Positions 7,375 through 38,335 of a DNA stretch of 64,000 bases are shown here, piece by piece. The notes below the pieces were generated by a model. It was not told the DNA's origin, did not search any database, and saw nothing but the letters and a program-made list of their open reading frames with translations. Every line of letters starts with the position of its first letter. The first letter of the stretch is position 1. Where the stretch lies: IMG/VR virus record IMGVR_UViG_3300031992_000018, positions 96,001 to 160,000 of that record; one strand, 5' to 3'. A program made the position numbers and the translations under genes. Source of the stretch: a virus (lineage: Duplodnaviria; Caudoviricetes).

Positions 7375-7401
7375 ATTAATGTAATTAAAACAAACAACAT
7401 T

Positions 7402-8016
7402 ATGAAAAAGAACATCGATATTTTTTCCAAAGATTATCAGAAACAACTTAAAGAACGTTATTCTATTGCTCTTGAGGATGTTTGGAAAAAAGATAGTAAG
7501 ATGATTGATTGGGCAATGAAGCAGATTACATTCATTGCTCCAATTTGTGACGGTAAATATTTAATTGAATTTACAAAACCCAATATTGAAACTGAATTCT
7601 GGTTTGGTGAATCTGATTGTGGACAGGGTTTTTCTCATGATGAGAATAATAAACGTATGAATAAAGTTAGGTTGACTTTGGAAGAATATTTCATTAATAA
7701 GAATATGGAAAGTATTAATAATGAAATTAATACTATCAAAAATATTCTTAATGGAAAATCTTCAAATAAAGCTAAACATTATTTACAGTATTGGAATTCC
7801 CCTGCTGATTCTCCAATTCATGATTTTACTATCGAAAGTCCTTATTATAGAAGTGGAGTAAGTGGTGAAACTTATGATATTTCTAATAAAGATCTGAAAA
7901 TCATTCTTAAAGCTCTTGAGCTTAATAAAGAGAGATTTATGACTCGATTGGTTTCTTATCTTAAGAAATATGGTACTAAAAAAATCCGTGTTAGTTCTTA
8001 CTGGCTTGATAGGTAA
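7402..8016 (+). CDS. Hypothetical protein
   Basis: Likely start ATG 7402 downstream of the promoter. Confidence 0.7.
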   Translation: MKKNIDIFSKDYQKQLKERYSIALEDVWKKDSKMIDWAMKQITFIAPICDGKYLIEFTKPNIETEFWFGESDCGQGFSHDENNKRMNKVRLTLEEYFINKNMESINNEINTIKNILNGKSSNKAKHYLQYWNSPADSPIHDFTIESPYYRSGVSGETYDISNKDLKIILKALELNKERFMTRLVSYLKKYGTKKIRVSSYWLDR

Positions 8017-8017
8017 T

Positions 8018-8479
8018 ATGAATAAATACATGATTATTGCTTTACGTCAACGTGCTAAGCAAACAATAAAGGCATTTTCAAAACGTCTTGAGGAATATAA
8101 TTCTATAACAAATTCAAATATTGATTTTCATACATTTTTTGTAGATGTTTTGAATTATTCTGAAGAAGATTATTTGAATTTACTTACTGTTAAAATTAAA
8201 TTTGAAAAAATAAGAAAAGATAGAGAAACTCCTAAGAAGAAAAAAATAGACCAAAATAAATTAATTGAACATGGAATAGGAGATACAGAAAATCCTGAAT
8301 ATAAAAAATACTGGGATATTTTTACAGACTATAATGAAAATTATCTTGGAGATGAATCTATTAAAGGTAAAAAATGCTTAAAGCAATATTTTATTTATAA
8401 ATATAATTATGATGAAGATAAAGCTTATGCTGAATCTAGAAAAATAACATCTATAATTTTTAAAAAGAAAAAGAAGTAA
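8018..8479 (+). CDS. Hypothetical protein
   Basis: Likely start ATG 8018 just after the upstream stop. Confidence 0.55.
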   Translation: MNKYMIIALRQRAKQTIKAFSKRLEEYNSITNSNIDFHTFFVDVLNYSEEDYLNLLTVKIKFEKIRKDRETPKKKKIDQNKLIEHGIGDTENPEYKKYWDIFTDYNENYLGDESIKGKKCLKQYFIYKYNYDEDKAYAESRKITSIIFKKKKK

Positions 8480-9158: not shown

Positions 9159-10046
9159 TTAATCATGATACCATTTAGGAGGATTTTTTTGTAAAGGAGA
9201 TTCTTTAAACATACGTAGCATATTTGTAACATTACTTACATTCCACTTTGATATATCCCCATTAAATTTAGAATTTAAAAACATACAATACATATTAGTA
9301 ACTTTACTTACATCCCAAGATGATATATCTCCATTAAATTCAGTCTTACTAAACATACTTGCCATACTTGTAACATTACTTACATCCCATTTTGATATAT
9401 CACCATTAAATTTAGAATTATAAAACATACTATTCATACCTGTAACATTGCTTACATTCCAAGATGATATATCACTATTAAAATCAGAATCACAAAACAT
9501 TGCCGACATATCAGTAACATTACTTACATCCCAAGAAGATATATCTCCATTAAATGATGAATAATAAAACATCTGTGACATATCAGTAACATTACTTACA
9601 TCCCAAGAAGATATATTTCCATTAAATAATGAATGATAAAACATAGAAATCATATCTTTAACATTACTTACATCCCAAGATGATATATCACCATTAAATT
9701 CAGAACCAGAAAACATTCTTTGCATATTAGTAACATTACTTACATCCCAAGATGATATATTTCCATTAAATTTAGAATTATAGAACATACTATCCATATT
9801 AGTAACATTACTTACATCCCAAGATGATATATTTCCATTAAATTTAGAATTATAGAACATACTATCCATATTAGTAACATTACTTACATCAATATCATTT
9901 AAATCAGCCTTATTTCCTCTTTCTTCAATAAGTTTATCTACTAAAGATTTAAGTTCATCTCTATCTTTAGGTTGATAATTATGTATTGGTTTAATATTTT
10001 TATTAAGATGAAGTTTTTCAAATAAGTAATTATTTAATTCTTTCAT
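9159..10046 (-). CDS. BspA-like DUF285 repeat protein with capsid-targeting-like leader
   Basis: About ten 22-aa repeats FNGDISSWDVSNVTxMxxMF; N-terminus MKELNNYLFEKLHLNKNI. Confidence 0.85.
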   Translation of the reverse strand: MKELNNYLFEKLHLNKNIKPIHNYQPKDRDELKSLVDKLIEERGNKADLNDIDVSNVTNMDSMFYNSKFNGNISSWDVSNVTNMDSMFYNSKFNGNISSWDVSNVTNMQRMFSGSEFNGDISSWDVSNVKDMISMFYHSLFNGNISSWDVSNVTDMSQMFYYSSFNGDISSWDVSNVTDMSAMFCDSDFNSDISSWNVSNVTGMNSMFYNSKFNGDISKWDVSNVTSMASMFSKTEFNGDISSWDVSKVTNMYCMFLNSKFNGDISKWNVSNVTNMLRMFKESPLQKNPPKWYHD

Positions 10047-10078
10047 TATATGTATAATATATTATTATATATAAAAAT

Positions 10079-10108
10079 AAAAAAGAGGTTCATTTATTGA
10101 ACCTCTTT
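10079..10108. terminator. Terminator, copy 2 (near-identical to 9126-9155)
   Basis: aaaagaggttca-tttat-tgaacctcttt. Confidence 0.8.
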
Positions 10109-10127: not shown

Positions 10128-11405
10128 TTATTTTTCAAGCATTGCAAGTTCTTTAGCTGCTTTATTAAGAAGAGTAATCTTAACAGGATCATTCTTATAT
10201 TGTTCTGCTAAAAGAGCAATCTTCTTTCTTCTTGCTGCGAATGCTGCTTCTTTATCAGCTTCAAGTTGTTCCTTGATTTGCTGATATTTTTCGGGATCAG
10301 CTTTCTTACAATCTTCATTGATTCTATTTTCATAAACTTCTTTAAGATCAATACCTGTTACTTTAATAACATCCTTAAGAGCTTCTACCATAAAATCATA
10401 AGATTTAACTGAAGTACCAGCATTAAGTGAACGGTTAACTGAAAGAACTACATTATTACCTTCGATAATTGTGCAAATTTCACCTGTAGATGTCTGAAGA
10501 ACATTAACATTATCAAGAGCGCGTACATTATCATAAGCTTCAAATACTTCTGCAATAGCACTTGTAACATTCATCCAATTCATCTTTTCATTTAATGACA
10601 TTGGTTTAGAAACTGTATTACAATACTGAATAAAATCAGCTGCATTACTAAAGCTTTCTTTAAGATCACCTTTTGTAAATACAAGACCTTCATCAGTTAA
10701 AGTAAATCTTGCTGTATCTCCATGAGTACCTTTATATTCATAGAAAATAGAATTATCTTCTCTAGAGAAACTTTCAAGAAGAGCATTAATTCTCTTGAAT
10801 TTAATATCATCACAAACAGCTTCAGTAATATTATTTTCTTCATCTCTCTTATAAGTTTTACCAAGAACTGAGAAATAAGAATCTTTCTTATCTTCACTTT
10901 CTGTAACTACTACATAAGAAATAGGAGTTGTAACAACATATGTAGGAGCATGCATTTCATTAAGAGTTGAAGCATAAACATTCTTAAGAATCTGTCTAAA
11001 TTCAGGAATAAATGTAAGGTTCTTCATTGCACCAGCTTTAAGATATGATACAACTTCACTTTCATTCATTTCAAGAAGTTTATCTACTTGTTCAAGTCCC
11101 ATCTTTGAAAGATAACCATAACTTGAATTATTAGCATTGATTGATTCACAAGCTGTTGCAAGTTGCCAAGAAATATTATTTTCTTTAATAAAACTATTAA
11201 CAGATTCTAAAATTCCTACCAAACCTGCATCGAAACTAAATTTAGCTGCTTCTTTAATAAAGCCATTAACGATACCACAGGTAACTGGATTAGAATAAAT
11301 ATATCCTCTGTAGTTTTGTAACATTTCTTTACCTGCTTCGGTAACTGCTTCAGTTCCGTTTATCTTACTTGCGAAGTCCAGGTTTTTTAGTAATTTTATA
11401 TTCAT
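10128..11405 (-). CDS. Hypothetical protein, possibly virion or prohead associated
   Basis: 425-aa ORF; C-terminal coiled coil; located among putative late genes. Confidence 0.6.
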   Translation of the reverse strand: MNIKLLKNLDFASKINGTEAVTEAGKEMLQNYRGYIYSNPVTCGIVNGFIKEAAKFSFDAGLVGILESVNSFIKENNISWQLATACESINANNSSYGYLSKMGLEQVDKLLEMNESEVVSYLKAGAMKNLTFIPEFRQILKNVYASTLNEMHAPTYVVTTPISYVVVTESEDKKDSYFSVLGKTYKRDEENNITEAVCDDIKFKRINALLESFSREDNSIFYEYKGTHGDTARFTLTDEGLVFTKGDLKESFSNAADFIQYCNTVSKPMSLNEKMNWMNVTSAIAEVFEAYDNVRALDNVNVLQTSTGEICTIIEGNNVVLSVNRSLNAGTSVKSYDFMVEALKDVIKVTGIDLKEVYENRINEDCKKADPEKYQQIKEQLEADKEAAFAARRKKIALLAEQYKNDPVKITLLNKAAKELAMLEK

Positions 11406-11499
11406 AGTTTTAATATATTTGGTATATTTATAGAATTTGTAGATTAATTCTACTTTTTATATATAATAATAAAATAATTTTAAAATGTATGATTATTTA

Positions 11500-11721
11500 T
11501 TATATTTTTGTTTTAATATCTTTAATGTCACCAATTTTAATAACAATTGTATTTTCACTACATTTTGCTATTTCCCAATCATCAATTTGATTCCATTCAT
11601 CAAAATCATCATCATCTGGTCTATGCCAAAAGAATTTACCTCTTAAATCAACTTCTAAAATATATCCTTTACCATTATTATTTATATTTTCATTTAAAAG
11701 GAGTTCAACTAAATTTTTCAT
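11500..11721 (-). CDS. Small protein with capsid-targeting-like leader
   Basis: MKNLVELLLNE. Confidence 0.55.
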   Translation of the reverse strand: MKNLVELLLNENINNNGKGYILEVDLRGKFFWHRPDDDDFDEWNQIDDWEIAKCSENTIVIKIGDIKDIKTKI

Positions 11722-11745
11722 AATTATATTATATATTTATTTATT

Positions 11746-12033
11746 TTATACTTTCCAACCAACTGATGTACCAACAGCAGTAAGTATAAGTCTTGATGTA
11801 AATAAACTTCCAAGAGGACCAGTTTCGTTAATACCAAGAGCCTTACAAATTGCTTTCATAACTTTAGGGCCAAATGTAGCACCAGTAATACCACCAACTA
11901 TAGATCCTATAATTCCTTCTTCAATTGGAATATTATTTTCTTTAGCCTCTTGAAGTTTAGCAATTACATTATCATAAGTTAATTCCTCTGTAATAGGAGT
12001 TTCAGTATTTATAAAATCTTCTAATTTTTTCAT
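11746..12033 (-). CDS. Putative head-internal protein with Gly-rich hydrophobic segment
   Basis: MKKLEDFIN...ITE leader; IEE-GIIGSIVGGITG. Confidence 0.6.
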   Translation of the reverse strand: MKKLEDFINTETPITEELTYDNVIAKLQEAKENNIPIEEGIIGSIVGGITGATFGPKVMKAICKALGINETGPLGSLFTSRLILTAVGTSVGWKV

Positions 12034-12038
12034 ATTAA

Positions 12039-12467
12039 TTATTTAATGATTTTATCTATATCAAAATCAAATTCATCTTTATTATCAACTAAATTCTTTA
12101 TAATTTCATCTTTTGTTCCTATAAAAACTTGATTATCTTCTTCAGAATTTCCAGCAATAGCATTTAATCCAGGACGATAAAAAATATAACTTGTTTCATC
12201 ATATATATTTTTAAAAATTAAATCACCAACCTTAGGTTTATTATTACCTTTATCAGCAAAATAATTACTATTATCATATATAAAGTATTCTTCAATAAAT
12301 TCTTTCATAGAAGAACCTTCTTTAAAATCATCATTTGTTAATATATGATAAGGTTCAATCTCTTTAATTAATTTATTTAATTTACTTTGTGCATTGATTT
12401 CTTTATAATCAATTATATAATATATATCTTTTTTTGTTTCTAAAATATAATCTTTTAAACTTTTCAT
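12039..12467 (-). CDS. Putative head-internal protein
   Basis: MKSLKDYILE leader. Confidence 0.6.
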   Translation of the reverse strand: MKSLKDYILETKKDIYYIIDYKEINAQSKLNKLIKEIEPYHILTNDDFKEGSSMKEFIEEYFIYDNSNYFADKGNNKPKVGDLIFKNIYDETSYIFYRPGLNAIAGNSEEDNQVFIGTKDEIIKNLVDNKDEFDFDIDKIIK

Positions 12468-12487
12468 ATTAATTATTTAATAATTTT

Positions 12488-13258
12488 TTATAGTTTTTTA
12501 CCAAGATTATTTATTGGATGAGGAAATTCATTTTTCTTTGCAAGTTCTTCTAAATCTTTTTCATACTTCTCTTTTTCAAAAACAATTGTAAATAAGAAAG
12601 TATAAAGATCATCAAGATTATCAATAGCAACATCAAGTACTTGAGCCCAAGTAATTTCTTTTCTCTTTTCAAGTTTAGTTAAAGTATCTGCTGCATTAAG
12701 TAAAGAATTTTTTATAGAACATTCTTTACCATTAGTACCCATATGTTTAATAGCAAATAATTGAATATCACCATTAGCTCTTAATAAAAGTACAGGTTCT
12801 GATAATTTTTCATCTTTACATATAGATAATATATCATTTCTTAATTTAGGACTCATACACATATTTCCCATATTAGAACATGGTTCATAAAATACAAGTG
12901 GTTCTGAATTGCTTCTTTGATATTCATCATTGAATCTGCATTTATAACTAAATTCTCCATGTGCATTATATAAATCCATTACTTTAGGATAACCTGAAAA
13001 AATCTGTGTATATTTTGTAACAGGATCTAATGGAGTACATGAACTAGGTTCTAAAGTATTTGCACATGGAACGCAAGGATCAACAGTACATGATGCTTCA
13101 CCAGGAATATCACATCCATAAGAGCAACCATCATCACAACATCCACAACATTCAGTTATTTCATATCCTTCAAGATTAGAAAGTTTTTCTACAATATTCT
13201 TATCTAATCCCTTTAAACATATATATTGATTATTTATATATTCAGATAATTTTTTCAT
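12488..13258 (-). CDS. Cys-rich protein with capsid-targeting-like leader
   Basis: MKKLSEYIN; ITE-CCGCCDDGCSYGC. Confidence 0.6.
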   Translation of the reverse strand: MKKLSEYINNQYICLKGLDKNIVEKLSNLEGYEITECCGCCDDGCSYGCDIPGEASCTVDPCVPCANTLEPSSCTPLDPVTKYTQIFSGYPKVMDLYNAHGEFSYKCRFNDEYQRSNSEPLVFYEPCSNMGNMCMSPKLRNDILSICKDEKLSEPVLLLRANGDIQLFAIKHMGTNGKECSIKNSLLNAADTLTKLEKRKEITWAQVLDVAIDNLDDLYTFLFTIVFEKEKYEKDLEELAKKNEFPHPINNLGKKL

Positions 13259-13312
13259 ATCTTAATATTATATAATTTTCTATTAAACTTTAGAAAATGT
13301 AGTAATTCTAAT

Positions 13313-13660
13313 TTATTTTACTAATTCTAATACTTTAGCTATAACCTTTTTAAAGATTTCACCAGCCTTTTCAGGTTCATTTTTAAATAATTGTAAACAA
13401 ACTGCACTATGATAAGCATCATATATTTTATTATTTATTTCTTTATCCCATTTTGGAGATTCAAAATAAACATCTAAAGCATTCATAGCTACATCATGAA
13501 TCTTATTTACATCATCATTATTTTTAACATCTAAATCTTTAACATCATCATATTGAGATGATAATTCATTAACCGATATTGCTTTATTTTCATTTATATT
13601 AAAATCAATATCAATTGTATTTGCACTTGCATTGTTTAAATATTCATTTAAGCTTTTCAT
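13313..13660 (-). CDS. Putative head-internal protein
   Basis: MKSLNEYLN leader. Confidence 0.65.
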   Translation of the reverse strand: MKSLNEYLNNASANTIDIDFNINENKAISVNELSSQYDDVKDLDVKNNDDVNKIHDVAMNALDVYFESPKWDKEINNKIYDAYHSAVCLQLFKNEPEKAGEIFKKVIAKVLELVK

Positions 13661-13677
13661 ATCTTTATATTATTTAT

Positions 13678-13890
13678 TTAATCAAAATATCCACAAGCAT
13701 CCATTTCATCATAAAGTTCTTCTAAAGTTTTGTCTGTAAATGTATCCCACAAAAGATTTAAAATTTCTTCTGTATCTAATTTAGAAAAAGCTTTATTCAT
13801 TTTTTCTTTATAATTATCTCTTTCTGATTGAGACCATTCATTAATTACTTGTTCATCAGTATGATTTAAATATTCATTTAAGTTTTTCAT
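13678..13890 (-). CDS. Putative head-internal protein
   Basis: MKNLNEYLN...VINE leader. Confidence 0.65.
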   Translation of the reverse strand: MKNLNEYLNHTDEQVINEWSQSERDNYKEKMNKAFSKLDTEEILNLLWDTFTDKTLEELYDEMDACGYFD

Positions 13891-13936
13891 ATCTTTATAT
13901 TATTTATTTATATAATTTTCCATTGAGTTTCATAAA

Positions 13937-14416
13937 TTAATCCCAAGCGGCATCATCATATTCTTTTGTTCTTCTTATATTTTTATAACCATTATCAGTA
14001 TATGAAAGTTTAGTATAAAGATTATTTATTAATTCATAAATAAATCCATAAGGTTTTCCAGGATCTTTTCTTTCAGAACATTGATACTGCCAACTGTCTA
14101 GCCATTTTAATATTTGTACCTCTGAAACTTTTTCTTTAGGTTCAGAATATTTAAATGTAGATTTTGCTGCTTCTGATTTTCCATATCTATAACTTATTGC
14201 ACGACGATTACAATTATATAAATCATTTGCAATTGTTTGTTCATCTGCATCATCATACCATTTTATGTATGTTTTAGTAATTTTTGAAAGTAAATCAGAT
14301 TTATTTATAAATAAGTCATGAATATATTTTGCTAATTGATTAATTACTTCATCACTTTCCATAAATGCAGATTCATTAATGAGTGATTCATTTAAATATT
14401 CATTTAAGTTTTTCAT
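13937..14416 (-). CDS. Putative head-internal protein
   Basis: MKNLNEYLNESLINE leader; N..AI.YRY and YQCSE motifs. Confidence 0.65.
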   Translation of the reverse strand: MKNLNEYLNESLINESAFMESDEVINQLAKYIHDLFINKSDLLSKITKTYIKWYDDADEQTIANDLYNCNRRAISYRYGKSEAAKSTFKYSEPKEKVSEVQILKWLDSWQYQCSERKDPGKPYGFIYELINNLYTKLSYTDNGYKNIRRTKEYDDAAWD

Positions 14417-14424
14417 ATCTTATA

Positions 14425-14826
14425 TTATATAATTTTCCATTGAGTTTCAGAAACTGTAGTGATTCTCATATTATCAAGACCTTGTTTAAGATAAAGGTCA
14501 AGAATCTTTTGAAGTTCTGTATTGTTATTAGCATAAAAAGGAACAGGATATTTAAGAGTCTTTATTGTTCCATCTTCCTGTTCTACTTCTTCTGCAAATT
14601 TTACTATAAATACTTTGCATGTTTCTTGATATTCTATATTACCAGCTGGTTTAAGATTCTTCATAAGACATACATCTTCAATCTCTCCTTCACCATTTAA
14701 ATATTTTAATACAGCATATCCTGCTTCTGCAAAATTATTTTGATCACTAAGATAATACTCAGTGATAGGTTTTTCTTTACCTTTAGTGGTTAATATATTT
14801 CTACTTACCTTAACTCTGTACCACAT
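14425..14826 (-). CDS. DUF4494-like protein (Bacteroidetes family)
   Basis: MWY.VKV......GK.K.ITEYYL.D..NFAEA pattern; C-terminal I..VSET. Confidence 0.6.
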   Translation of the reverse strand: MWYRVKVSRNILTTKGKEKPITEYYLSDQNNFAEAGYAVLKYLNGEGEIEDVCLMKNLKPAGNIEYQETCKVFIVKFAEEVEQEDGTIKTLKYPVPFYANNNTELQKILDLYLKQGLDNMRITTVSETQWKII

Positions 14827-14838
14827 AATTATTATATA

Positions 14839-15273
14839 TTATATACTTTCTAAATCTATCCATCCGTATTTGCTACTATCTAATTTATCCTGAATTTTTT
14901 CAATAAAATCAATAAAAGAATAAATTACATAATCTCTTGATGGATCAAATTCATCATCATCACCTTTATAATATTTAATATCATCTAAATCTGGATAAAG
15001 ATTATTTATATATTTTTTAAAAATTTCTATTTCCATTTTTAATTCATCTTCTCTTTCTTTAGATTTATAGTTAGTTTCAAAATCTTCTCTTCTTTGAATA
15101 CTTAAAAACTCTCCAATAGATTTATCATCATTATTTATTATAAAAAATTGTTCACCACTAACACCATTATCGTCATAATGATACTGGAAAACTAATAATT
15201 TAATATCATCTATTTTTATATTTTTATTAAGATGAAGTTTTTCTGAAATTAAATATTCATTTAAAGTTTTCAT
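14839..15273 (-). CDS. Putative head-internal protein
   Basis: MKTLNEYLISEKLHLNKNI leader. Confidence 0.65.
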   Translation of the reverse strand: MKTLNEYLISEKLHLNKNIKIDDIKLLVFQYHYDDNGVSGEQFFIINNDDKSIGEFLSIQRREDFETNYKSKEREDELKMEIEIFKKYINNLYPDLDDIKYYKGDDDEFDPSRDYVIYSFIDFIEKIQDKLDSSKYGWIDLESI

Positions 15274-15280
15274 ATATTAT

Positions 15281-15613
15281 TTATTTATTTATTTCATTAT
15301 ATCTTTCAATTATATCTAATAGTAATTGTTTATTAGATATTGGATAAAACATTCTATCAATATAGATTCCAATAATATCTTTTGGTGCTGCAATATCTAA
15401 TTCTTTATCAATCATATTTATTGTATACCATGAATAATCATTTCCTTCTTTTAAAAGAATTTTAGGTAATTGATCAGAATTACTTTTATTTGCATCATAT
15501 CTATTTGTTCTATCGATTACTTTTTTACATGCTTCATCTTTTTCTAAAATAGATTTTACAAATGCAAAAAAAGAATTTTTTCCTTCAGTTATATATTCAT
15601 TTAAATTCTTCAT
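15281..15613 (-). CDS. Putative head-internal protein
   Basis: MKNLNEYITE leader; TTATTTTTA motif upstream. Confidence 0.65.
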   Translation of the reverse strand: MKNLNEYITEGKNSFFAFVKSILEKDEACKKVIDRTNRYDANKSNSDQLPKILLKEGNDYSWYTINMIDKELDIAAPKDIIGIYIDRMFYPISNKQLLLDIIERYNEINK

Positions 15614-15704
15614 TATATTATATAATCTAATTAAATAAAAATAAAATCTTTTGAATTATATTATCAAAATTATCTATAATACATTATCTAAATTAATTAA
15701 TAAA

Positions 15705-15902
15705 ATGAAAAAAATATTTGTTTTAATTATATCATTACTTTGTTTATTTGGTTGTTCTTCACAAGAAAGAGGTTCTAATGGAATTTCTGTTGAAAAGTTT
15801 ACTTATGAACAACATGACTATTTGATGTTTTACACAATAACTGGTCATTTTACTGGAGTAGAACATGATCCAAATTGTTGGTGTATGAATGATTATGATT
15901 AA
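15705..15902 (+). CDS. Small lipoprotein
   Basis: MKK + hydrophobic stretch + LFGC lipobox; likely start 15705. Confidence 0.6.
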   Translation: MKKIFVLIISLLCLFGCSSQERGSNGISVEKFTYEQHDYLMFYTITGHFTGVEHDPNCWCMNDYD

Positions 15903-17173: not shown

Positions 17174-17560
17174 TTAATCCAAGTGATCAAAAGCTACTGG
17201 TTCACCATTCCAATAATAACAATATGTATATTTATCTAATTTTACATCTCCAAATTTATTTATTCTTGCTCTCTTTTCTTCTGTTTCTTTTGTATCAAAT
17301 TCATCAGGAATTGGAACTGATTTACCAGCTTGACCATTACCAGATACAATTTTATCTTTTAATTTTCTAAAAGTAAATGTTTTACCACTAATTTTAACTA
17401 TTTTATAAAAATCAATTATAATCATACTATAACTAAAATTAGAATAAATAATATCACCTACTTCCCAATTTTCTGGTTTTGATTTATCTCTTTCTTCAAC
17501 AGTTTCAATATCTTTATTAAGATGTAATTTTTCTATTATATATTTATCTAATTGTTTCAT
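17174..17560 (-). CDS. Putative head-internal protein
   Basis: Likely start 17560, MKQLDKYIIEKLHLNKDI. Confidence 0.65.
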   Translation of the reverse strand: MKQLDKYIIEKLHLNKDIETVEERDKSKPENWEVGDIIYSNFSYSMIIIDFYKIVKISGKTFTFRKLKDKIVSGNGQAGKSVPIPDEFDTKETEEKRARINKFGDVKLDKYTYCYYWNGEPVAFDHLD

Positions 17561-17570
17561 ATTATATATA

Positions 17571-19079
17571 TTAATATTTATGTCCTCCTCTTGCATATTG
17601 AAGTCTCATTTGTTCTTCAATCATTGATTCTGCATCTTCATCAGTAAAATCAGGATCATCATCACAAGCAGTAAATATCTTTGCACAAAGAACAAATGTT
17701 CTTAATGATAATTCCATACTTGATCCTTTTTCATTTAATTCTTTTAAATAATTATAAGCCTTTATTTTTGCTTTAGGCAATAATATTTTATTTTCAATAT
17801 TTGGAAGTAATTTCTTTATAATTGATAAAATCTCATCATTTGAAAAATCAATATCTTGCATAAAACATCTATTTCTTAAAGCTGTATCAAGTTGTCCTGC
17901 ACGATAATTTGTTATAACAATAACACCAGATTTAATTCTACATTTCTTTGGAATTTCTTGACCGTCATCATCAGTAATTTTACCAGCAATTCCATAAGTA
18001 ACAAGTCTTCCTTCTGGAGATGTATCTGAATCAAGAGCTGCTTTAAGAATATTGATACAGTTTTCATCTGCTTGTGGACCTACAAGAGAGTCAGCATCAT
18101 CAATTAAAATAATATCATTACTTTCTCTAAATCCATAAAGAGTAGCATAAAGTCTTCTTGCTGTACATTTGCCTTTTATAGTACAAAGATTTTCTCCTTC
18201 AATATAATTAGATTCTTTAAGTTGTTTCTTTACTCTATATGTTTTACCAACACCAGGAGCTCCACAAAGAATAAGTGCTGGTTGACGACCTTTAATAACT
18301 AAAGAAATATATTTTTCCATTTCTTTAAATATCTGGTCAGGATCTTTTCTATTACTTTGAGCATCTTTAATTTCCTTAGAATCTTCAATTTCAACTCTTT
18401 TACCTTTAGCAATTGATACTTTAATATCTTCTGAACCACCTTCTTTTATATATTTATAAATATCTTTAACATCATTTTCGATATTATTTAAATTAGAGTT
18501 TGAAATTTTACTCTTAGCAATAAATGATTCATGAATTAAATCTTTATCAATTTTAGAAAAAATATAATTTAATTTACCAATATTATATTTAGATTCTTTT
18601 AAATTATCTTCTTTATTAGATAATTTTTTAACATCTTCTTCACTAATAGAATATTTTTTAGAATTTACTATTGTCCATACTACTGGTAATAATTTAGCTA
18701 TATTTGTACCTAAAGTATAAATAGATAAATCTGCTTTTCCTTTACCAGACCAATATACATCTAAATCTTTAAAAAAGTCTATAGAATATACATCTACAGA
18801 ATCATTATCATTAATCCAATTAAATTGAAAAAATGAAGTTTTAGCATAATCTGATTTATCAATAACAATAAATTGTTTTGATGTACATTTTTCACCATCA
18901 ATTGTAGTATCTACAAAACCAATAAGAGGAACAAGACCATTGATATGCTTCTTTAAAATTGATTCAATTTTTTCAATAGCCGCATCAATATCTTTTTCTC
19001 TAAATGATTCATTTAATTTTTCTTTATTTTGTATATCTTGATTACGCTTATTTACGAATTCTAAAAAATTATATCTCAT
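17571..19079 (-). CDS. AAA+ ATPase domain protein
   Basis: GAPGVGKT Walker A, LIDDAD Walker B, VITN, ALRNR. Confidence 0.85.
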   Translation of the reverse strand: MRYNFLEFVNKRNQDIQNKEKLNESFREKDIDAAIEKIESILKKHINGLVPLIGFVDTTIDGEKCTSKQFIVIDKSDYAKTSFFQFNWINDNDSVDVYSIDFFKDLDVYWSGKGKADLSIYTLGTNIAKLLPVVWTIVNSKKYSISEEDVKKLSNKEDNLKESKYNIGKLNYIFSKIDKDLIHESFIAKSKISNSNLNNIENDVKDIYKYIKEGGSEDIKVSIAKGKRVEIEDSKEIKDAQSNRKDPDQIFKEMEKYISLVIKGRQPALILCGAPGVGKTYRVKKQLKESNYIEGENLCTIKGKCTARRLYATLYGFRESNDIILIDDADSLVGPQADENCINILKAALDSDTSPEGRLVTYGIAGKITDDDGQEIPKKCRIKSGVIVITNYRAGQLDTALRNRCFMQDIDFSNDEILSIIKKLLPNIENKILLPKAKIKAYNYLKELNEKGSSMELSLRTFVLCAKIFTACDDDPDFTDEDAESMIEEQMRLQYARGGHKY

Positions 19080-22996: not shown

Positions 22997-23093
22997 AAAT
23001 TTTACATACTTAATTTAATTAAAAATAAAAATCTACTATAAAAGTTTAAAGATTTGAATGTTATTTTTATATATAAATAGATAATACTAAGAA

Positions 23094-24734: not shown

Positions 24735-24798
24735 TAAAATTTTTCTTTATACAATTAAAAATAATTTTATTTTTATTTAATTATATAACACAGTATTT

Positions 24799-25535: not shown

Positions 25536-27196
25536 TATTTTTCTTCTCTACTATGTTTATTGTATTCTGATGAATGAAATTCTTCTTCAAAAGTATGTTT
25601 AGCACCAGGATTAATCATATAAGCCATTTTTGCCATTATATCTCTATTAAGAAGAACTGGTGTTGATTTCTTTCTATTATCAACAAGAGCAAAATCTACA
25701 TTAAGTAATTTTCTTGAACCAATCTGAATACAAGGTACTATTACAGTAACTCTTTCTTCACGTACTTGTCCAACTATAGGGTTTGAAACCCCACTTTTCT
25801 TAAATCTATATGTTTTACCATTTATAACTGCTGATACTTTATCTCCAACTACTTCAACTGATTCACAACCAATTGTAGAAGCTTTAGCGCCATTACCTGT
25901 ATCAAATTTAGCTTCAAGTTCAAATTCTGAATCATTATCCATAATAAACTTCATATTTTCAATATAACCAATTGATTTAGGTGCAAGTACAAGCTCATTA
26001 ATATCATTGATTGCATCAAGAAGTATCTTACAGAAATTTTCTCCAATTACTTCAGAAATACCTTCTGTACCTGGAGAGCAGTTATATTCAAGAACAACAT
26101 TATCTCCAATCTCTGGATTAGAACCTTTTACAAGAGGCATAATATCAACAGCACACCAAGGCATACCTGAAATCTTTGCTACATTTAATGCAATATCTTC
26201 TTGTTCTTTAGTAATTTCAACTTTTTCAGCTTCTGCACCAAGAGATACATTACTTCTGAAATCACCACCAAGTTTCTTTCTCTTCATACATGCAAGAATT
26301 GTTTGTTTTGTTCTGCTTGTAAGAACATGCACTCTGATATCACCACCATCAGCTTCTTCTTTCTTTTGAAGAAGTAATTCTCTTTCAGGGTCAATAGCAA
26401 ATATTGCTTGAAGAATTGCAAGAATACCTTTACCTGTTGTCATGAATACACCTGTTCCACCATGACCATCAAGAATCTTTACAACATATTCTCTCTTTTC
26501 ATCTTCTTCTTTATTTTCACCTACTTCTTTATAAATAAGTTTAAGTTTCTTCTGAAGAGATTCTTCACCTTTAGATACATCTTTTGAAGAAAGAAGACAG
26601 AATTTTGGTTGTGGAATATCATATCTTTTCATAAGAACAGCTGAAGCATATTTATTACTTGCTCTTTTAGCTGCTTGAATTGGATTAAGAACAAAAAGAC
26701 CCCAATCTTGAAGTTCTTTAATACATTCCATACATTCTTCACTATCTTGTGCACCAAGACGTGCAATAACTATTGTATCTATATTTGATTGATCTGTTAT
26801 AGTAAATTTCTCTTTAGAATCTTTAATTTCAATTTTCTTATCATCTGCACTATAATCAACTTCTTCAGAAACAAATGTTATAAGATTTACATCTGTATTT
26901 TTAAGTGCATCTTGAAGGTTTTTAAGAGTTTTATTTTTTGAAGCATCTCTTTCATTTGTAAAGAAGATAATATTCTTAAAGAAATATTCTTCATTTCTTT
27001 TTATTTTTTCAGCATTCTGTACAGTATCATTTTTTGCACCTAATTGTTCAGCTGCTTGATCAACTGCTTGGTCTTCTGAACCAGGTTTTTCTGGATTTTT
27101 TTCTGCACCAGTATTTTCTTCTGCTTCTAAAATAGATTCTACTTCATCTATTGATTTAATAAATTTTGATTCTAAAAGTTCAGTTAAAGTTTTCAT
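25535..27196 (-). CDS. RimK-family ATP-grasp ligase fused to a RimB-like (retropepsin-like) peptidase
   Basis: VVK..DGHGG.GV, DIRV, FRSNVSLG, AVDIM, VLEYNCSPG; C-terminal AKFDTGNG, LLNRD; leader MKTLTELLE. Confidence 0.85.
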   Translation of the reverse strand: MKTLTELLESKFIKSIDEVESILEAEENTGAEKNPEKPGSEDQAVDQAAEQLGAKNDTVQNAEKIKRNEEYFFKNIIFFTNERDASKNKTLKNLQDALKNTDVNLITFVSEEVDYSADDKKIEIKDSKEKFTITDQSNIDTIVIARLGAQDSEECMECIKELQDWGLFVLNPIQAAKRASNKYASAVLMKRYDIPQPKFCLLSSKDVSKGEESLQKKLKLIYKEVGENKEEDEKREYVVKILDGHGGTGVFMTTGKGILAILQAIFAIDPERELLLQKKEEADGGDIRVHVLTSRTKQTILACMKRKKLGGDFRSNVSLGAEAEKVEITKEQEDIALNVAKISGMPWCAVDIMPLVKGSNPEIGDNVVLEYNCSPGTEGISEVIGENFCKILLDAINDINELVLAPKSIGYIENMKFIMDNDSEFELEAKFDTGNGAKASTIGCESVEVVGDKVSAVINGKTYRFKKSGVSNPIVGQVREERVTVIVPCIQIGSRKLLNVDFALVDNRKKSTPVLLNRDIMAKMAYMINPGAKHTFEEEFHSSEYNKHSREEK

Positions 27197-27927: not shown

Positions 27928-30900
27928 ATGAGTAAAAGAAAAGATCTTAAAAAGATTATGGTCATAGGTAGTGGTCCAATTGTAATTGGTCAAGCTGCCG
28001 AATTTGATTATGCTGGTACACAAGCATGTCTTGCACTTAAAGAAGAAGGATATGAAGTTATTCTTGTAAATTCTAATCCAGCAACAATTATGACAGATAC
28101 TAATATTGCTGATAAGGTTTATATGGAACCTTTGACTTTTGATTATGTATCTAAAATTATTTATAAAGAACGTCCAGATGGTATTGTACCAGGTCTTGGT
28201 GGTCAGACAGGATTAAATCTTGTAACAGAACTTTCACAAAAAGGTGTTCTTGATGAATGTGGTGTAGAAGTTCTTGGTACATCATTTGAAAGTATAAATA
28301 TTGCTGAAGACAGAGAAAAATTTAAAAACTTTTGTATTGATAATAATATTCCTGTAATTCCTTCGGAGATTGTACATGATATTCAAGGTGCTATTAATGC
28401 AGCATCTTCAATTGGATATCCTGTTGTTCTTCGTCCAGCATTCACTCTTGGTGGAACAGGTGGTGGATTTGCTTATAATGAAGATGAATTAAAGGAACAT
28501 ATGATAAATGCTCTTAATCTTTCACCTATTCATCAGGTACTTATAGAAAAGAGTGTAAAAGGTTATCGTGAGATTGAATTTGAAGTAATGAGAGATAACA
28601 ATAACAATGCTATATGTATTTGTGGAATGGAAAATGTTGATCCTGTTGGAATTCATACAGGTGATTCAATTGTTGTTGCTCCATGTATAACAGTTTGTAA
28701 AAATGATTATGAAAGGTTAAAAAATGATGCTTTAAAGATTATTAAGAAATTACAAATTGCTGGTGGATGTAATGTACAGTTTGCTCTTTCTCAAGAAGAT
28801 GAAGATAAATATTATATTATTGAAATTAATCCTCGTGTATCTCGTTCATCAGCTCTTGCATCAAAAGCATCTGGTTATCCTATTGCAAGAGTAACTGCTA
28901 AGATTGCTGTTGGTTATAATCTTAATGAAATAAATCTTGATGATCATACAGCATTGTTTGAACCTTGTCTTGATTATATAATTGCTAAATTCCCAAGATT
29001 TCCATTTGATAAATTTGAAGAAGCTAAAGATGAACTTTCAACTCAGATGAAAGCAACTGGTGAAGTTATGTCAATTGGTAAAACTCTTGAAGAAGCTTTC
29101 TTAAAGGGTCTTAGAAGTCTTGAAACAAAAACATATCATTTATATAATTCTAAATTTGATCATTTTAAGAAACAAGAACTTATTGAATATATTTCAACTG
29201 ATGCATATGATAAGATTTTTGCTATAGCACAACTTCTTAGGATTGGTGTATCTGTAAAAGAAATATTTAATAAGACAATGATATGTGAAGATTTTTTAGT
29301 AGCATTTAGAAATATTGTTGAATTTGAAGAGAAGGTAGAACATTATGGCAAAGATGAAAATGCTGATTTTGGTGATATAATTTATAGAGCAAAGTTATTA
29401 GGTTTTTCTGATGAAGAAATAGCTCATCTTATAGATACAGATCCTTATGAAATTACTAAATATCGTTTAGATAATGGTTATGTACCAAAATATAGAATAG
29501 TTGATTGTTATTGTTATAGATATTCTATTGATATAAATGGTAAAGAATATGAACATAAGAGATCAATTCCTTATTTCTATTCAACATATAATGATCTTGT
29601 AGAAAATGAATCAGTAAGAAGTAATAAAAAGAAAATCATAGTTCTTGGTTCTGGTCCTATACGTATTGGTCAAGGTGTAGAATTTGACTATTCTACAGTA
29701 CATGCAATATGGGCTATCAAGAATATGGGTTATGAAGCTATTATCATTAATAACAATCCTGAAACAGTTTCAACAGACTACACTATTTCTGATAAACTTT
29801 ATTTTGAACCTCTTACTGTTGAGGATGTAATGAATGTAATTAATTTTGAAAAACCTGATGGAGTAATTGTATCTCTTGGTGGACAAACAGCAGTAAATCT
29901 TGCTAATCCTCTTTCTAAGTTCAATATTCCAATTATAGGTACTGGAATTGAAGCAATTAATAATGCTGAAGATAGAAAGATTTTTGAAAGCATTCTTGAA
30001 GAACTTAATATTCCTCAACCAAAAGCTATTGCTGTAACAAATATTGAAGATGGTTTAAAAGCTGCTAATGAAATTGGTTATCCAGTACTTGTTCGTCCAA
30101 GTTTTGTTCTTGGTGGTCGTGCAATGATGATTGTTGGTAATGATGATACTCTTAAGCATTATCTTGCTAATGCTGTTGCTCTTGATGAAAAATCTCCAGT
30201 TCTTATTGATAAATATATACAAGGTATTGAGTGTGAAGTAGATGCAATATGTGATGGAGAAACAGTACTTATTCCAGGTATAATGGAACATATTGAAAGA
30301 ACTGGTGTTCATTCTGGAGACTCTATAAGTATATATCCTTCAGTTAAATTAACTGATATAAATAAACAAAGGATTATTGAATATACAAAGAAACTTGGTG
30401 TAAGAATTGGTATTAAAGGATTATTTAATATTCAATATATTGCTAATGGTGATGATATTTATGTTATTGAGGTAAATCCAAGAAGTTCTAGAACAATTCC
30501 ATTCTTAAGTAAGTCTACTAATATTCCTATGGCAAAAATTGCTACAGAAATAATGTTAGGTAAGAAATTAGTTGATTATGGATATCCTGAATATATTCCT
30601 GAAAAGAATTCATATTTTATCAAAACTCCTGTATTTTCATTTAATAAACTTATAGGTGTTGAGTCATATTTGTCACCAGAGATGAAATCTACAGGTGAGG
30701 CGATAGGTATTGATAAAACTTTCACAAAAGCTCTCCAGAAGAGTTTGTGCGCCTCTGGATTAAAGATTAAAGACCATGGTACGATATTCGTAAGTGTATA
30801 TGATGATGATCGTGAAGAAGTATTACCTATTATAAAGAGATTTTATGATTTAGGATTTAATATTGAATCTATAAATGGTACAGCTACTTTCTTAAAAGAA

Positions 30901-31149
30901 CATGGTATACATACTAAGACTCTTAAGAATCTTTCATATTATGATCTTATTAGAAATGGACACTTTACATATATAATCAATAGGATTAATGTAAATCAGC
31001 ATTCATCTCATCTTGATGATTATGGTATTCGTCACGTTGCTACTGAATGTAATGTACCAGTATTTACATGTCTTGATACAGTAAATGCACTTCTTGATGT
31101 TATTGAAGATATAACATTAAACGTTAATGATATTACTAAATTCAATTAA
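27928..31149 (+). CDS. carB: Carbamoyl-phosphate synthase large subunit
   Basis: 1073 aa; IGSGPIVIGQAAEFDYAGTQA, duplicated ATP-grasp halves (EINPRVSRS, EVNPRSSRT), GSGPIRIGQGVEFDY, C-terminal MGS-like domain. Confidence 0.97.
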   Translation: MSKRKDLKKIMVIGSGPIVIGQAAEFDYAGTQACLALKEEGYEVILVNSNPATIMTDTNIADKVYMEPLTFDYVSKIIYKERPDGIVPGLGGQTGLNLVTELSQKGVLDECGVEVLGTSFESINIAEDREKFKNFCIDNNIPVIPSEIVHDIQGAINAASSIGYPVVLRPAFTLGGTGGGFAYNEDELKEHMINALNLSPIHQVLIEKSVKGYREIEFEVMRDNNNNAICICGMENVDPVGIHTGDSIVVAPCITVCKNDYERLKNDALKIIKKLQIAGGCNVQFALSQEDEDKYYIIEINPRVSRSSALASKASGYPIARVTAKIAVGYNLNEINLDDHTALFEPCLDYIIAKFPRFPFDKFEEAKDELSTQMKATGEVMSIGKTLEEAFLKGLRSLETKTYHLYNSKFDHFKKQELIEYISTDAYDKIFAIAQLLRIGVSVKEIFNKTMICEDFLVAFRNIVEFEEKVEHYGKDENADFGDIIYRAKLLGFSDEEIAHLIDTDPYEITKYRLDNGYVPKYRIVDCYCYRYSIDINGKEYEHKRSIPYFYSTYNDLVENESVRSNKKKIIVLGSGPIRIGQGVEFDYSTVHAIWAIKNMGYEAIIINNNPETVSTDYTISDKLYFEPLTVEDVMNVINFEKPDGVIVSLGGQTAVNLANPLSKFNIPIIGTGIEAINNAEDRKIFESILEELNIPQPKAIAVTNIEDGLKAANEIGYPVLVRPSFVLGGRAMMIVGNDDTLKHYLANAVALDEKSPVLIDKYIQGIECEVDAICDGETVLIPGIMEHIERTGVHSGDSISIYPSVKLTDINKQRIIEYTKKLGVRIGIKGLFNIQYIANGDDIYVIEVNPRSSRTIPFLSKSTNIPMAKIATEIMLGKKLVDYGYPEYIPEKNSYFIKTPVFSFNKLIGVESYLSPEMKSTGEAIGIDKTFTKALQKSLCASGLKIKDHGTIFVSVYDDDREEVLPIIKRFYDLGFNIESINGTATFLKEHGIHTKTLKNLSYYDLIRNGHFTYIINRINVNQHSSHLDDYGIRHVATECNVPVFTCLDTVNALLDVIEDITLNVNDITKFN

Positions 31150-31192
31150 TAAAAATTACTATATTAAATAAAATTAAAATAATTTATATAAT

Positions 31193-32971
31193 ATGAAGAG
31201 TTTACTTTTAACACTTGGACATAATTCATCCGCAATTTTTGTAGAAGATGGTAAAACACCTATTGGTTATGAAGAAGAAAGATTAACAGGTATTAAATCT
31301 GATTCACAGTTTCCTACTGATGCAATTCATGAAATTGCTAGAAATGTAGGTATTAAGAATATGAAAGGTTGTAAGATATTTATTTCACATTGGTTTGATT
31401 TTATTCCTAATGTAATACCTAATAAATATATTACTCAGACTGATATTGACAATCTTAAAGAAATTTCTGATGATATTACCTTTGTATCTCCAGAATTTAC
31501 ACATCATGATGCTCATGCTTATGCTGGTAAGAGTTTCTTTGATTATCATTTCTCAAAGTTAAATACTGATCCTTATTGTGATGTTTCTCTTAAACTTCAG
31601 CAGAATAAAGATATTTATGTTATTGTAGCTGATGGTTTTGGTAATAATGGTGAGGTTCTTTCAGTTTATAAAATTAATGATTATTTAAATAATAGATTTA
31701 GTAATCTTAATCTTGAACATAGAGTTTATGGATATAAGAATTCTATTGGTCTTATGTATCAGTATGCAACTTCTTATGTTGGTATGAAAGAAAATCAAGA
31801 TGAGTATAAATTCCTTGGATATGAAGCTCATATTGATGAATATCTTAATAAATATAAGATTGATATTCTTGATGCATATATCAAAGAACTTGTAAATACT
31901 CTTTGGGAAGGATTTGAAAGAGATACTAATACTAATGTATATAAAAAGTGTGAATATTTAATTAATTTTGATTCACTTAAAGAAACTAAAGAATATTTCC
32001 ATAATATCTTTAGAGAAGCATATGAGACAGTATGGAAAGCTGATGATAAAGCAAAATATTCAAAAGAAGATAATGAATTTATTCAGAGAAGTATTGTAGC
32101 ATATTATCTTCAGCAGACAGTAGAACAATTCTTTGGTAAGGTTGTTGAAAAGTTTAATATACAGAATGTAGTTGTAGTTGGTGGTTCATTCTATAATGTA
32201 AAACTTAATAATTATATTTTTGAACATACTAATGGTGTATATTGTGCAATGCCTCTTGCAGGTGACCAAGGTGCTGCTATAGGTCTTTATTACTATTATA
32301 CTGGTGAACAATTCAATTTTGAAACACTTTGTATTGGTAAGAGAAATTTCTATGGTGCTGAAAAGGTATTTAAGAAGAATTTCTATAGAGAAGCTACTGA
32401 TGAACTTGCAAAAGAAATAGCAAGAAAGATTGCTGATGGATATATTGTAGATCTTGTACATGGTTCTATGGAATTTGGTCCTCGTGCTCTTATGCATACA
32501 TCAAGTTTATTTATTCCTACAGTAGAGAATACTGCTCAGAATAATTCAAATAATCTTAGAAATGAAGTAATGCCTTGTGCGCCAGTTCTAACAAAAAAGA
32601 ATGCTGAATTTTTATTTGGTAAAGAAAGTATTAATCGTGTTGTTGGTAGTGATGAATTTATGATTCTTACACATACTTATAAGAGAGGATATTCAGAACT
32701 TTATGGTGGTGTAATGCATAAGATTGTCCTTAAAGATGGTTATTCTGGTCGTCCACAAATTGTAAGAGAAGGAACATTTGAAGAGAAGATTCTTAAATAT
32801 GTTGAAGAACTTGCAGATATTAAATGTCTTGTCAACACATCTTATAACAAGCATGGTACACCTATTCTTTATTCAATGAAGCAAATTAAAGATGACTACA
32901 ATTTCCAAGTTGAACATTCACAAATGAATGGTTACAAGAAGTCTCCTTTACTTTATGTAGTTGAAGATTAA
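31193..32971 (+). CDS. Carbamoyltransferase, NodU/CmcH family (putative 5-hydroxymethylcytosine carbamoyltransferase)
   Basis: EEERL..IK, HHDAHA, DGFG, EYKFLG, GDQGAAIG, EFGPRAL, NTSYN.HG.P. Confidence 0.92.
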   Translation: MKSLLLTLGHNSSAIFVEDGKTPIGYEEERLTGIKSDSQFPTDAIHEIARNVGIKNMKGCKIFISHWFDFIPNVIPNKYITQTDIDNLKEISDDITFVSPEFTHHDAHAYAGKSFFDYHFSKLNTDPYCDVSLKLQQNKDIYVIVADGFGNNGEVLSVYKINDYLNNRFSNLNLEHRVYGYKNSIGLMYQYATSYVGMKENQDEYKFLGYEAHIDEYLNKYKIDILDAYIKELVNTLWEGFERDTNTNVYKKCEYLINFDSLKETKEYFHNIFREAYETVWKADDKAKYSKEDNEFIQRSIVAYYLQQTVEQFFGKVVEKFNIQNVVVVGGSFYNVKLNNYIFEHTNGVYCAMPLAGDQGAAIGLYYYYTGEQFNFETLCIGKRNFYGAEKVFKKNFYREATDELAKEIARKIADGYIVDLVHGSMEFGPRALMHTSSLFIPTVENTAQNNSNNLRNEVMPCAPVLTKKNAEFLFGKESINRVVGSDEFMILTHTYKRGYSELYGGVMHKIVLKDGYSGRPQIVREGTFEEKILKYVEELADIKCLVNTSYNKHGTPILYSMKQIKDDYNFQVEHSQMNGYKKSPLLYVVED

Positions 32972-37579: not shown

Positions 37580-38335
37580 ATGAATATACTTATAACAGGA
37601 AACAGAGGATTTATTGGTGGACATTTATCTAAATATTTAAAGGATAAAGGTCATAATATTATAGGTATAGATAGAAAAGATGGTAATGAAGTATTAGATA
37701 TTAATGAAGATACTTTAAAAGATATTGATATTATAATCCATTTAGCAGCACAAACATCAGTTTGGAATACTAATATTGAATTAATAGAAAATGATAATAT
37801 AAAATCTTTTATTCATATATTTAATTTATGTAAAAAACTTAATAAAAGATTTATATATGCAAGCAGTTCATGTTCGATAAATATAACATCGATGTATGGA
37901 TTAAGTAAATATTTTGATGATTTATATTTTGAAATTTATAAATGGGATAAATGTATTGGATTAAGATTTCATAATGTATATGGTAAAGATTCAAGAGAAG
38001 ATACATTATTAGGAATTTGTTTAAATAATTCAGAAATTACATTATATAATAATGGACTTAATTATAGACATTTTACTTATATAGATGATGTATGTAAAAG
38101 TATAGAAATGTCTTTTAATTTAAAATCTTGTATATATAATGTATTTAATCCTCAAGAAAATTCAGTATTAGAATTTGTCAATGAAGTTTTAAAATATAAA
38201 GATTTAAAAATTAATTTAATTGATTCTATAAGAGAACTTGATAAAGAAAAACAGCTTATAGATGATACTAAAATAAATTTAATAGAAAATAATTATAAAA
38301 ATATAAAAATAGGCATAAATGAGATATTTAGGTAA
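37580..38335 (+). CDS. NAD-dependent epimerase/dehydratase
   Basis: ITGNRGFIG, HLAA, YASS, YGLSK, LRFHNVYG, RHFTYIDDV. Confidence 0.9.
   Translation: MNILITGNRGFIGGHLSKYLKDKGHNIIGIDRKDGNEVLDINEDTLKDIDIIIHLAAQTSVWNTNIELIENDNIKSFIHIFNLCKKLNKRFIYASSSCSINITSMYGLSKYFDDLYFEIYKWDKCIGLRFHNVYGKDSREDTLLGICLNNSEITLYNNGLNYRHFTYIDDVCKSIEMSFNLKSCIYNVFNPQENSVLEFVNEVLKYKDLKINLIDSIRELDKEKQLIDDTKINLIENNYKNIKIGINEIFR

Follow-up and report, generated by a model that had tools for sequence, protein, structure and literature searches.

A hyperplastic gene-cassette region behind a DUF4494 gene of an uncultured jumbo phage

In phage RB49, ORFans are flanked by PeSLs, early promoter/stem-loop cassettes of ~100 bp; phi1 has a single PeSL instead, and mini-circles were detected (Arbiol et al. 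2010, PMC2839356). Modular shuffling by PeSLs has also been described in the hyperplastic regions of T4-type phages (Comeau et al. 2014, PMC4122927). Another line of work concerns the capsid targeting sequence (CTS) of T4, MKTYQEFIAE (PMC8442874, PMC9026906), which is all that the highly diverse set of T-even internal proteins has in common (PMC3012670). Here, we studied a gene-cassette array that recalls both. It lies behind a gene of the DUF4494 family in a stretch of 64,000 nucleotides (nt), hereafter the window, which spans bases 96001-160000 of the 168,026-bp IMG/VR virus record IMGVR_UViG_3300031992_000018. Three small genes, A, B and C, stand there between DUF4494 and a larger gene, D, all on the minus strand, and pieces of their junctions are repeated among them (Table 1). 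The region is a real, fast-evolving and hyperplastic part of the genome of an uncultured jumbo phage, and PeSL-mediated shuffling is its closest documented counterpart. We think it likely that whole genes enter, leave and change places there by a variant of that shuffling, in which portable junction modules supply the homology for unequal recombination.

The 168-kb record is linear, very AT-rich (25% GC) and ~59% complete according to CheckV. Relatives of the locus were found on metagenomic contigs of 283-420 kb, hence the attribution to a jumbo phage.

Repeated junctions and near-identical relatives

The initial annotation, made from the letters of the window, had noticed that the end of DUF4494 and the beginnings of its neighbours recur, and all the repeats it listed are present. 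The last 25 nt of DUF4494 are found intact behind gene A (13908-13932 = 14425-14449, 25/25), and the likeness extends to 28 of 29 positions (13908-13936 vs 14425-14453). A longer and decayed copy at 13259-13312 matches the DUF4494 3' end and spacer over 48 nt at 83% in a repeat search; its local alignment of ~49 nt scored 53, against 35 for the best shuffled query. The segments 13635-13680 and 13865-13910 differ by one mismatch in 46 nt, and this unit flanks gene B. Leader and part of the spacer are repeated once more, 13864-13895 being identical to 14390-14421 (32/32), where the annotation had placed a third junction repeat at 14391-14421. These repeats are far beyond chance: no 25-mer was repeated in ten random genomes of equal length (168 kb) drawn from a first-order Markov model, and nearly all other long exact repeats of the real genome fall inside repeat-protein genes. 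Another signature of this kind, absent from the initial annotation, is a 48-nt direct repeat that flanks a 142-amino acid (aa) gene (12011-12058 / 12445-12492, 85%, with a 21-nt exact core). At each gene start, the DNA forms a junction module of three parts: the preceding gene's stop codon or its last 29-50 nt, an AT-rich spacer of 8-17 nt and a 27-nt leader.

On either side of the array, the window and the relative L003 are ~99% identical. In L003, the stop codon of DUF4494 is followed by the 17-nt spacer and directly by gene C, with a single copy of the junction. The two sequences differ by an indel of ~747 nt, which comprises A and B with their duplicated junctions and is bounded exactly by the repeats. 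Junction unit copy 1 of the window is the single DUF4494-to-C junction of L003, identical up to the leader. The arrangement is not an assembly artefact, since the order of DUF4494, the 159-aa gene and a gene starting 46 nt later recurs in an independent sample, and the short form, lacking A and B, in two further samples. Other relatives hold yet other genes. A 28-kb contig with the same DUF4494 has genes of 133, 115, 256, 142, 95, 73, 425 and 295 aa, in this order, and A is absent. In L004, the DUF4494 protein is 99% identical, there is a third downstream gene (MKNLVDFLTE...), the 144-aa gene is missing upstream and backbone gene f1 is only 58% identical; from sequence comparison, L004 reads as a mosaic with breakpoints at gene boundaries. 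Since L003, the 28-kb relative, L004 and the distant loci differ, gene content at this locus is not fixed.

The more distant relatives (L005-8, L009, L011, L018 and L019-21) keep a backbone of f1, DUF4494, D, the 95-aa gene and the 425-aa gene, and in every slot between them carry other leader-bearing ORFans. Homologues of f1 occur in L003-L005, L009, L011 and L018. Those of D, at 36-64% identity in L005, L009, L011, L018 and L019, are always downstream of DUF4494, with 2-6 variable genes between; the 95-aa and 425-aa genes are 77-78% and 79-84% identical, respectively, in L005, L009 and L011. As had been expected, every relative examined has variable content enclosed by homologues of DUF4494 and of 12488-13258, and in close relatives the site is empty or holds other genes. 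The slots outside this interval vary as well. The 144-aa gene between f1 and DUF4494 is present in L003, not in L004, where f1 abuts DUF4494, and is replaced by other genes in L009, L018 and L005. The 142-aa gene behind D has no homologue among the distant relatives compared, and in L011 D abuts the 95-aa gene. Furthermore, cassettes occupy different slots in different relatives. The first cassette after DUF4494 in L009 resembles the last cassette before D in L018 (73%), the 90-aa gene after D in L009 resembles the 90-aa gene before D in L018 (69%), and the sole homologue of B (90%) comes directly after f1 on another contig, i.e. in a different slot. The proposal that cargo genes were inserted one after another at the same site, each time duplicating the upstream gene end and leader, is supported as to the independence of the cassettes and not as to the single site: B is internal, all slots vary and cassettes change slot.

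Two split genes were observed among these relatives. A cassette of 99 aa in L005 is divided into 30 + 58 aa in its near-identical relative L006 (L006:7410-7710), and the 425-aa backbone gene into 333 + 87 aa in L008 (L008:8657-9915). These may be decaying genes or sequencing errors.

Cassettes, leaders and their possible routes of exchange

Could A, B and C be tandem duplicates of one gene, diverged beyond recognition? They have leader and orientation in common, and A against C is borderline (z 3.7, raw score 48). Yet this is the best value obtained when the bodies of A, B, C and D were compared without their leaders: Smith-Waterman z was <4 in 36/36 pairs, so that no pair shows significant similarity, and the lengths differ (159, 70 and 115 aa). 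Homologues of A and B (79-93%) are found elsewhere in other combinations and slots, and near-exact repeats beside unrelated bodies are impossible by divergence after duplication. We therefore rejected a tandem-duplicate origin, which is extremely improbable. The view of the initial annotation that the three genes are unrelated beyond the leader, neither diverged duplicates nor a fixed gene set, was borne out. Gene C had no homologue in the loci compared other than L003 and the 28-kb relative.

Nearly all small ORFans in the slots begin with a leader of ~10 residues (MKxLxEY[IL]xE), and 33 open reading frames (ORFs) of the fragment fit the pattern M[KNMI]x[LIFV]xx[YF][ILV]. This raises another alternative, that the likeness of the junctions is kept by selection, on a translation-initiation region or a promoter, and is no scar of recombination. 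The best-kept part of the remnant in all copies is indeed the one nearest the next start codon (GAAAA[T/A]TAT[A/T]TAA plus spacer), the spacers contain TATAA-type motifs, and an upstream region tied to its gene would explain the survival of remnants of at least 29 nt. Yet the upstream 20 nt of the 33 leader genes are otherwise unrelated (mean 8.8/20 identical), with only two outliers, B-C (20/20) and the pair 12039/11746 (19/20). Leader DNA is on average identical at 17.4/27 positions over the 528 pairs, of which the top three are A-B (27/27), B-C (25/27) and A-C (25/27), and synonymous positions of the leader are identical within this array only. With the leaders of A, B and C at the top of all pairs and upstream regions otherwise unrelated, junction identity points to local and recent exchange and not to a genome-wide constraint or a shared functional motif. 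Moreover, the remnant before D has decayed at ~10/49 positions, the one behind A has decayed in L019, L030 and L018, and the limits of the indel against the ~99% identical relative coincide exactly with the repeats. We hold selection on the junctions to be improbable as their explanation.

A glutamate at residue 10 is found in 23/33 leader ORFs against 13/222 other ORFs. Gene A has it; in B, C and D, the leader closes with N-H or N-N. In eight ORFs, the leader is prolonged by a further conserved block, Y-I-x-EKLHLNK(N/D)IK (window 9159-10046, 14839-15273 and 17174-17596; G000 7427-8420, 28248-28562 and 162630-163491), and several of them are DUF285-like repeat proteins with SSWDVSNVTNM units. 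In the relatives L005, L009 and L011, the second block is EKLKINKDS.

The copies of the DUF4494 end have a history of their own. They are confined to the lineages of the window, L018, L019-21, L022 and L030, and their left boundaries lie at -29 behind A, -44 in L018 and about -49 behind C. Gene A has homologues of 79-93% identity in five contexts, and behind each of them there is a remnant of the DUF4494 end, which in L018 is only probable. This remnant has the same left boundary (TAA-TTT...) in the window, L019-21, L022, L030 and probably L018. In L022, it is still with A in a different genomic context, with no DUF4494 upstream and, downstream of A', a 760-aa gene that has no homologue in the 168-kb fragment. 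From the shared boundary across contexts it follows that the joint of A and its remnant had a single origin and moves as a unit. The remnant has decayed everywhere but in the window. The copy there has a single mismatch, TTTAT/TTTCT, to the right of which it is exact, and the 17-nt spacer behind it is the one found behind DUF4494 in L003. In L018, the array runs DUF4494, a 125-aa cassette, a 44-nt DUF4494-end copy, a short spacer and A. The allele of the copy is ...ATTATTTAA, as in L004, L019 and L030, and the DUF4494 of L018 itself ends in ...ATTATATAA. The foreign allele marks the copy as the truncated DUF4494-to-A junction of a different lineage, in front of which a new first cassette has been stacked. 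The polarity described at the outset is real: two arrays, those of the window and L018, hold two copies, and in each the decayed copy lies farther from DUF4494 than the near-exact one.

The metagenomic contig L030 (L030:1-1511) carries DUF4494, A, the remnant, the 17-nt spacer, a 95-aa cassette, a 71-aa gene and DUF4494 again. It starts and ends inside DUF4494, with a 38-nt exact overlap of its ends, and the unit measures 1,473 nt. The 95-aa cassette behind the 17-nt spacer sits upstream of DUF4494 in L009. Three readings of L030 are possible, namely mini-circle, tandem duplication and an assembly cycle between strains. As a tandem duplication or as a 1.47-kb circle, it would either way be a product of non-allelic recombination between junctions.

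The polarity had been likened to that of integrons or CRISPR arrays. Dedicated site-specific capture of the integron type would make the DUF4494 3' end an attI-like site, put an attC-like copy 3' of each cassette and rely on a recombinase provided in trans to insert circles. Much of the locus invites this comparison: in the window both A and C have an anchor-end copy behind them, as do A and the 125-aa cassette in L018, the fresher copy being the proximal one; A keeps its copy in the foreign context of L022; no copy boundary is more than 50 nt from the stop codon; L030 resembles a circle; and the recombinase could sit in the part missing from a fragment that is 59% complete. Yet the left boundaries vary, which leaves no fixed crossover point. 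The DNA at all four junctions folds no better than shuffled sequences, with z from -0.2 to -1.1 (13864-13940 and 14390-14470 were folded on both strands). No Phage_integrase (PF00589) match was found in the 168-kb record, the control being positive in 14/14 genomes, and no match to the Resolvase/serine recombinase family (PF00239) either, again with positive controls; the earlier remark that no recombinase is visible thus extends from the window to the whole fragment for tyrosine and serine enzymes. Gene B is flanked by spacer and leader only, with no anchor-end copy. There are no anchor-end copies in L005, L009 and L011, whose cassettes are equally variable, and turnover also affects slots away from DUF4494. 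A dedicated integron-like or CRISPR-like mechanism is thus very improbable.

The reading that we favour is unequal recombination between the junctions themselves. Each module offers 30-90 nt of portable homology at a gene start, and non-allelic homologous recombination across modules would insert, delete or relocate whole cassettes, an insertion leaving the module duplicated on both sides of the newcomer. The partners might be co-infecting relatives, sister genomes or excised circles. On the simplest account, gene A would have come in by a crossover between a donor's remnant behind A and the genuine DUF4494 end of an L003-like recipient. This would account for a copy that is exact past the TTTAT/TTTCT mismatch, on its right, in the window and decayed in the other relatives that retain it. 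Gene B would have come by exchange in the unit of spacer and leader, and the decayed copy before D would be the scar of an older event, from a time when D was the gene next to DUF4494. Additions would tend to occur beside DUF4494 owing to the homology between remnants and the intact gene end, and this would produce the polarity, with fresh copies near the anchor. A dedicated recombinase would be unneeded; a general recombination system, of the phage or of its host, would suffice.

Several points weigh against this account, in which recombination is read from sequence comparison. The three independent left boundaries all fall in the last 50 nt of a 402-nt gene, which is tighter than random illegitimate joins would give and points to a contribution from selection, trimming or some targeting. 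For general recombination to be efficient, 25-46 nt of homology is short, and no RecA/UvsX-type gene matching the RecA Pfam family was found in the fragment, which is 59% complete. Finally, L030 is a single 1.5-kb metagenomic contig and possibly an assembly cycle between strains.

The initial annotation had proposed that such insertions vary a set of capsid-loaded proteins, an idea based on the resemblance of the leader to the T4 CTS. The leader could be at once a true capsid-targeting peptide and a DNA recombination joint. Together with the DUF4494 end, it would then form a homology-driven 'integron' that works without a recombinase and lets giant phages exchange the proteins that they package and inject. 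New cassettes would come in beside the anchor, and the 1.47-kb unit of L030 would exemplify the small circles that serve in transfer. We consider this combination conceivable but rather unlikely.

Gene map and other features of the region

The block of co-oriented genes is summarised in Table 1.

Table 1. Features of the variable block, in the direction of transcription (positions in the window).
Feature	Position	Strand	Description
Backbone gene f1	15281..15613	-	110 aa, leader MKNLNEYITE; first gene of the co-oriented block
Variable cassette	14839..15273	-	144 aa, leader MKTLNEYLISEKLHLNK; slot between f1 and DUF4494
Anchor gene, DUF4494 family	14425..14826	-	133 aa, no leader; last 29-50 nt are the repeated piece 'E'
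Spacer S8 (TATAAGAT)	14417..14424	-	between DUF4494 stop and gene A start
Cassette A	13937..14416	-	159 aa ORFan, leader MKNLNEYLNE
E copy 1	13908..13936	-	29 nt of DUF4494 3' end, non-coding, directly behind gene A stop
Junction unit copy 1	13865..13910	-	stop TAA + 17-nt spacer ATAAATAATATAAAGAT + first 26 nt of gene B leader
Cassette B	13678..13890	-	70 aa ORFan, leader MKNLNEYLNH
Junction unit copy 2	13635..13680	-	stop of B + 17-nt spacer ATAAATAATATAAAGAT + gene C leader
Cassette C	13313..13660	-	115 aa ORFan, leader MKSLNEYLNN
E copy 2	13259..13312	-	decayed last ~46-49 nt of DUF4494 + 9-nt S8-type spacer (TATTAAGAT), before gene D
Backbone gene D	12488..13258	-	256 aa, Cys-rich, leader MKKLSEYINN
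Variable cassette	12039..12467	-	142 aa, leader MKSLKDYILE; slot between D and f5
Backbone gene f5	11746..12033	-	95 aa, leader MKKLEDFINTE
73-aa gene	11500-11721	-	between the 95-aa and 425-aa genes
Backbone gene f3	10128..11405	-	425 aa, no leader; right-hand limit of the variable block

The S8 spacer is also found directly after DUF4494 in L009 and L030. No terminator-like site was found in 11400-15800, where promoter-like matches are fewer than expected from shuffles.

The anchor protein matches PF14902 over profile positions 1-132/139 with E 7e-6 and 26.4 bits, against a curated cut-off of 27; 72 homologues at 49-100% identity were found, most of them assigned to PF14902 in precomputed annotation. 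Its AlphaFold model (predicted local distance difference test, pLDDT, 94) consists of two tandem strand-strand-helix-strand units, and a search of this fold against the PDB gave no match at E <= 0.001. Rows resembling eL20 were discarded as not meaningful (template modelling scores of 0.24-0.33, root-mean-square deviation of about 15). Searches of Pfam and PHROGs with all cassettes gave DUF4494 as the sole named Pfam family, and a few weak PHROG matches to families of unknown function. A search of the ESM Atlas with A yielded no usable match.

Nothing near to cultured phages was recovered by blastn or PHROGs. The segment 11400-16000 had no blastn match in the GenBank phage collection, and scans of IMG/VR with D, A, C and B recovered no relatives. 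The scan with DUF4494 recovered two distant loci only, 48% identical and in another context, behind a RecA-like gene. In these two phages DUF4494 is directly downstream of that gene (L001:4900-6396 and L002:4931-6396); the gene after DUF4494 differs between L001 and L002, which are otherwise near-identical, so that the site behind DUF4494 is variable there too. Among 30 large ORFs of the fragment, PHROGs recognised the terminase large subunit, a DNA polymerase, a helicase, a baseplate wedge protein and a carbamoyltransferase, and no capsid, portal or protease gene. The profiles PF03420 and PF07068 (gp21-type protease and gp23) had no match in the fragment or in the record of L001, and their positive controls gave none either.

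Two conserved upstream motifs were observed around the block. The motif CTATAAATATACCAAATATAT(T)AAAACT, upstream of the 425-aa gene, is nearly invariant (window 11406-11450, minus strand; L005:8612-8656; L009:4386-4430; L011:5931-5975) and is kept where the coding sequence is only 79-84% identical. It contains TATAAATA, the consensus of T4 late promoters. The motif TTTTATTTTTAT(A/T)TA stands upstream of the genes that open several co-oriented blocks, f1 and the 295-aa repeat protein among them (window 15614-15660, 10047-10095, 23050-23093 and 24755-24798; G000 7380-7426 and 26735-26780), and is a candidate phage promoter. Farther away, a 1073-aa protein matching phrog_29784 over its full length adjoins a Nol/NodU-like carbamoyltransferase (phrog_1601, E 5e-54) at 27928-32971. 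Hexanucleotide tandem repeats of the GGTTCA and TCTGGT types (39025-39100 and 39620-39650) lie inside a 307-aa ORF (38319-39242) and a 762-aa ORF (39266-41554).

Meaning of the locus and comparison with known systems

The locus is a clean, dated example of ORFan acquisition by giant phages, with before and after states that are ~99% identical and scars of different ages, and with one cassette, A, traced through five contexts. It also suggests that a partly coding junction can fill the role that promoter-terminator cassettes have in T4-type phages. If the leader is a packaging signal, then the same few dozen nucleotides would give a gene its expression context, its address in the virion and its recombinational mobility. 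This would explain the large and fast-changing sets of leader-tagged proteins of uncultured jumbo phages, and the cassettes would be candidates for injected proteins acting in host takeover or anti-defence.

How does the region compare with systems that have a dedicated machinery? As in integrons, there are promoterless cassettes of single genes in one orientation behind a fixed anchor, some with an anchor-related copy at their 3' side, the newest being proximal. Unlike integrons, the fragment has no integrase and the region has no attC-like imperfect palindrome; boundaries vary, insertion also occurs at internal and other slots, and the repeat is plain identity to the end of the neighbouring gene. 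Membership in this class fails on the recombinase, the attC structure and the fixed crossover point. Integrative elements that duplicate the 3' end of their target, at tRNA or protein gene att sites, likewise keep the intact end and leave a displaced non-coding copy distally. Here, however, the units are single tiny ORFs without an integrase of their own, and the length of the copy varies with each event.

The resemblance to T4 internal proteins concerns the leader. Both have ~10 N-terminal residues of the form M-K-x-hydrophobic-x-E/Q-aromatic-I/L-x-E on otherwise unrelated small proteins, and by this likeness to the CTS a role of the leader in capsid targeting is plausible. Yet there are ~33 leader genes in 168 kb here against three internal-protein genes in T4, and B, C and D do without the glutamate at position 10. 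The internal protein (IP) loci of T-even phages are reportedly polymorphic as well, as described by Repoila et al. in the EMBO J in 1994.

The PeSL regions come closest. In both, small ORFans in a variable region have a copy of a short conserved intergenic module on each side, and where a near-identical relative lacks the ORFan it has a single module instead, as between the window and L003. In both, homologous exchange between modules would insert genes at 'acceptable' intergenic points, with mini-circles as possible intermediates. The difference lies in the module and its bearer. A PeSL is a sigma70-like early promoter with a stem-loop terminator and measures about 100 nt, whereas the module described here has no promoter, hairpin or terminator, measures 30-90 nt and is a partly coding junction of stop, spacer and start, with a 27-nt leader and sometimes the last 29-50 nt of the upstream gene. 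And whereas PeSLs belong to T4-type phages, this fragment has no recognisable T4 core genes. Hence, the modular shuffling described for that group probably has a counterpart in this uncultured jumbo phage, with a different joint.

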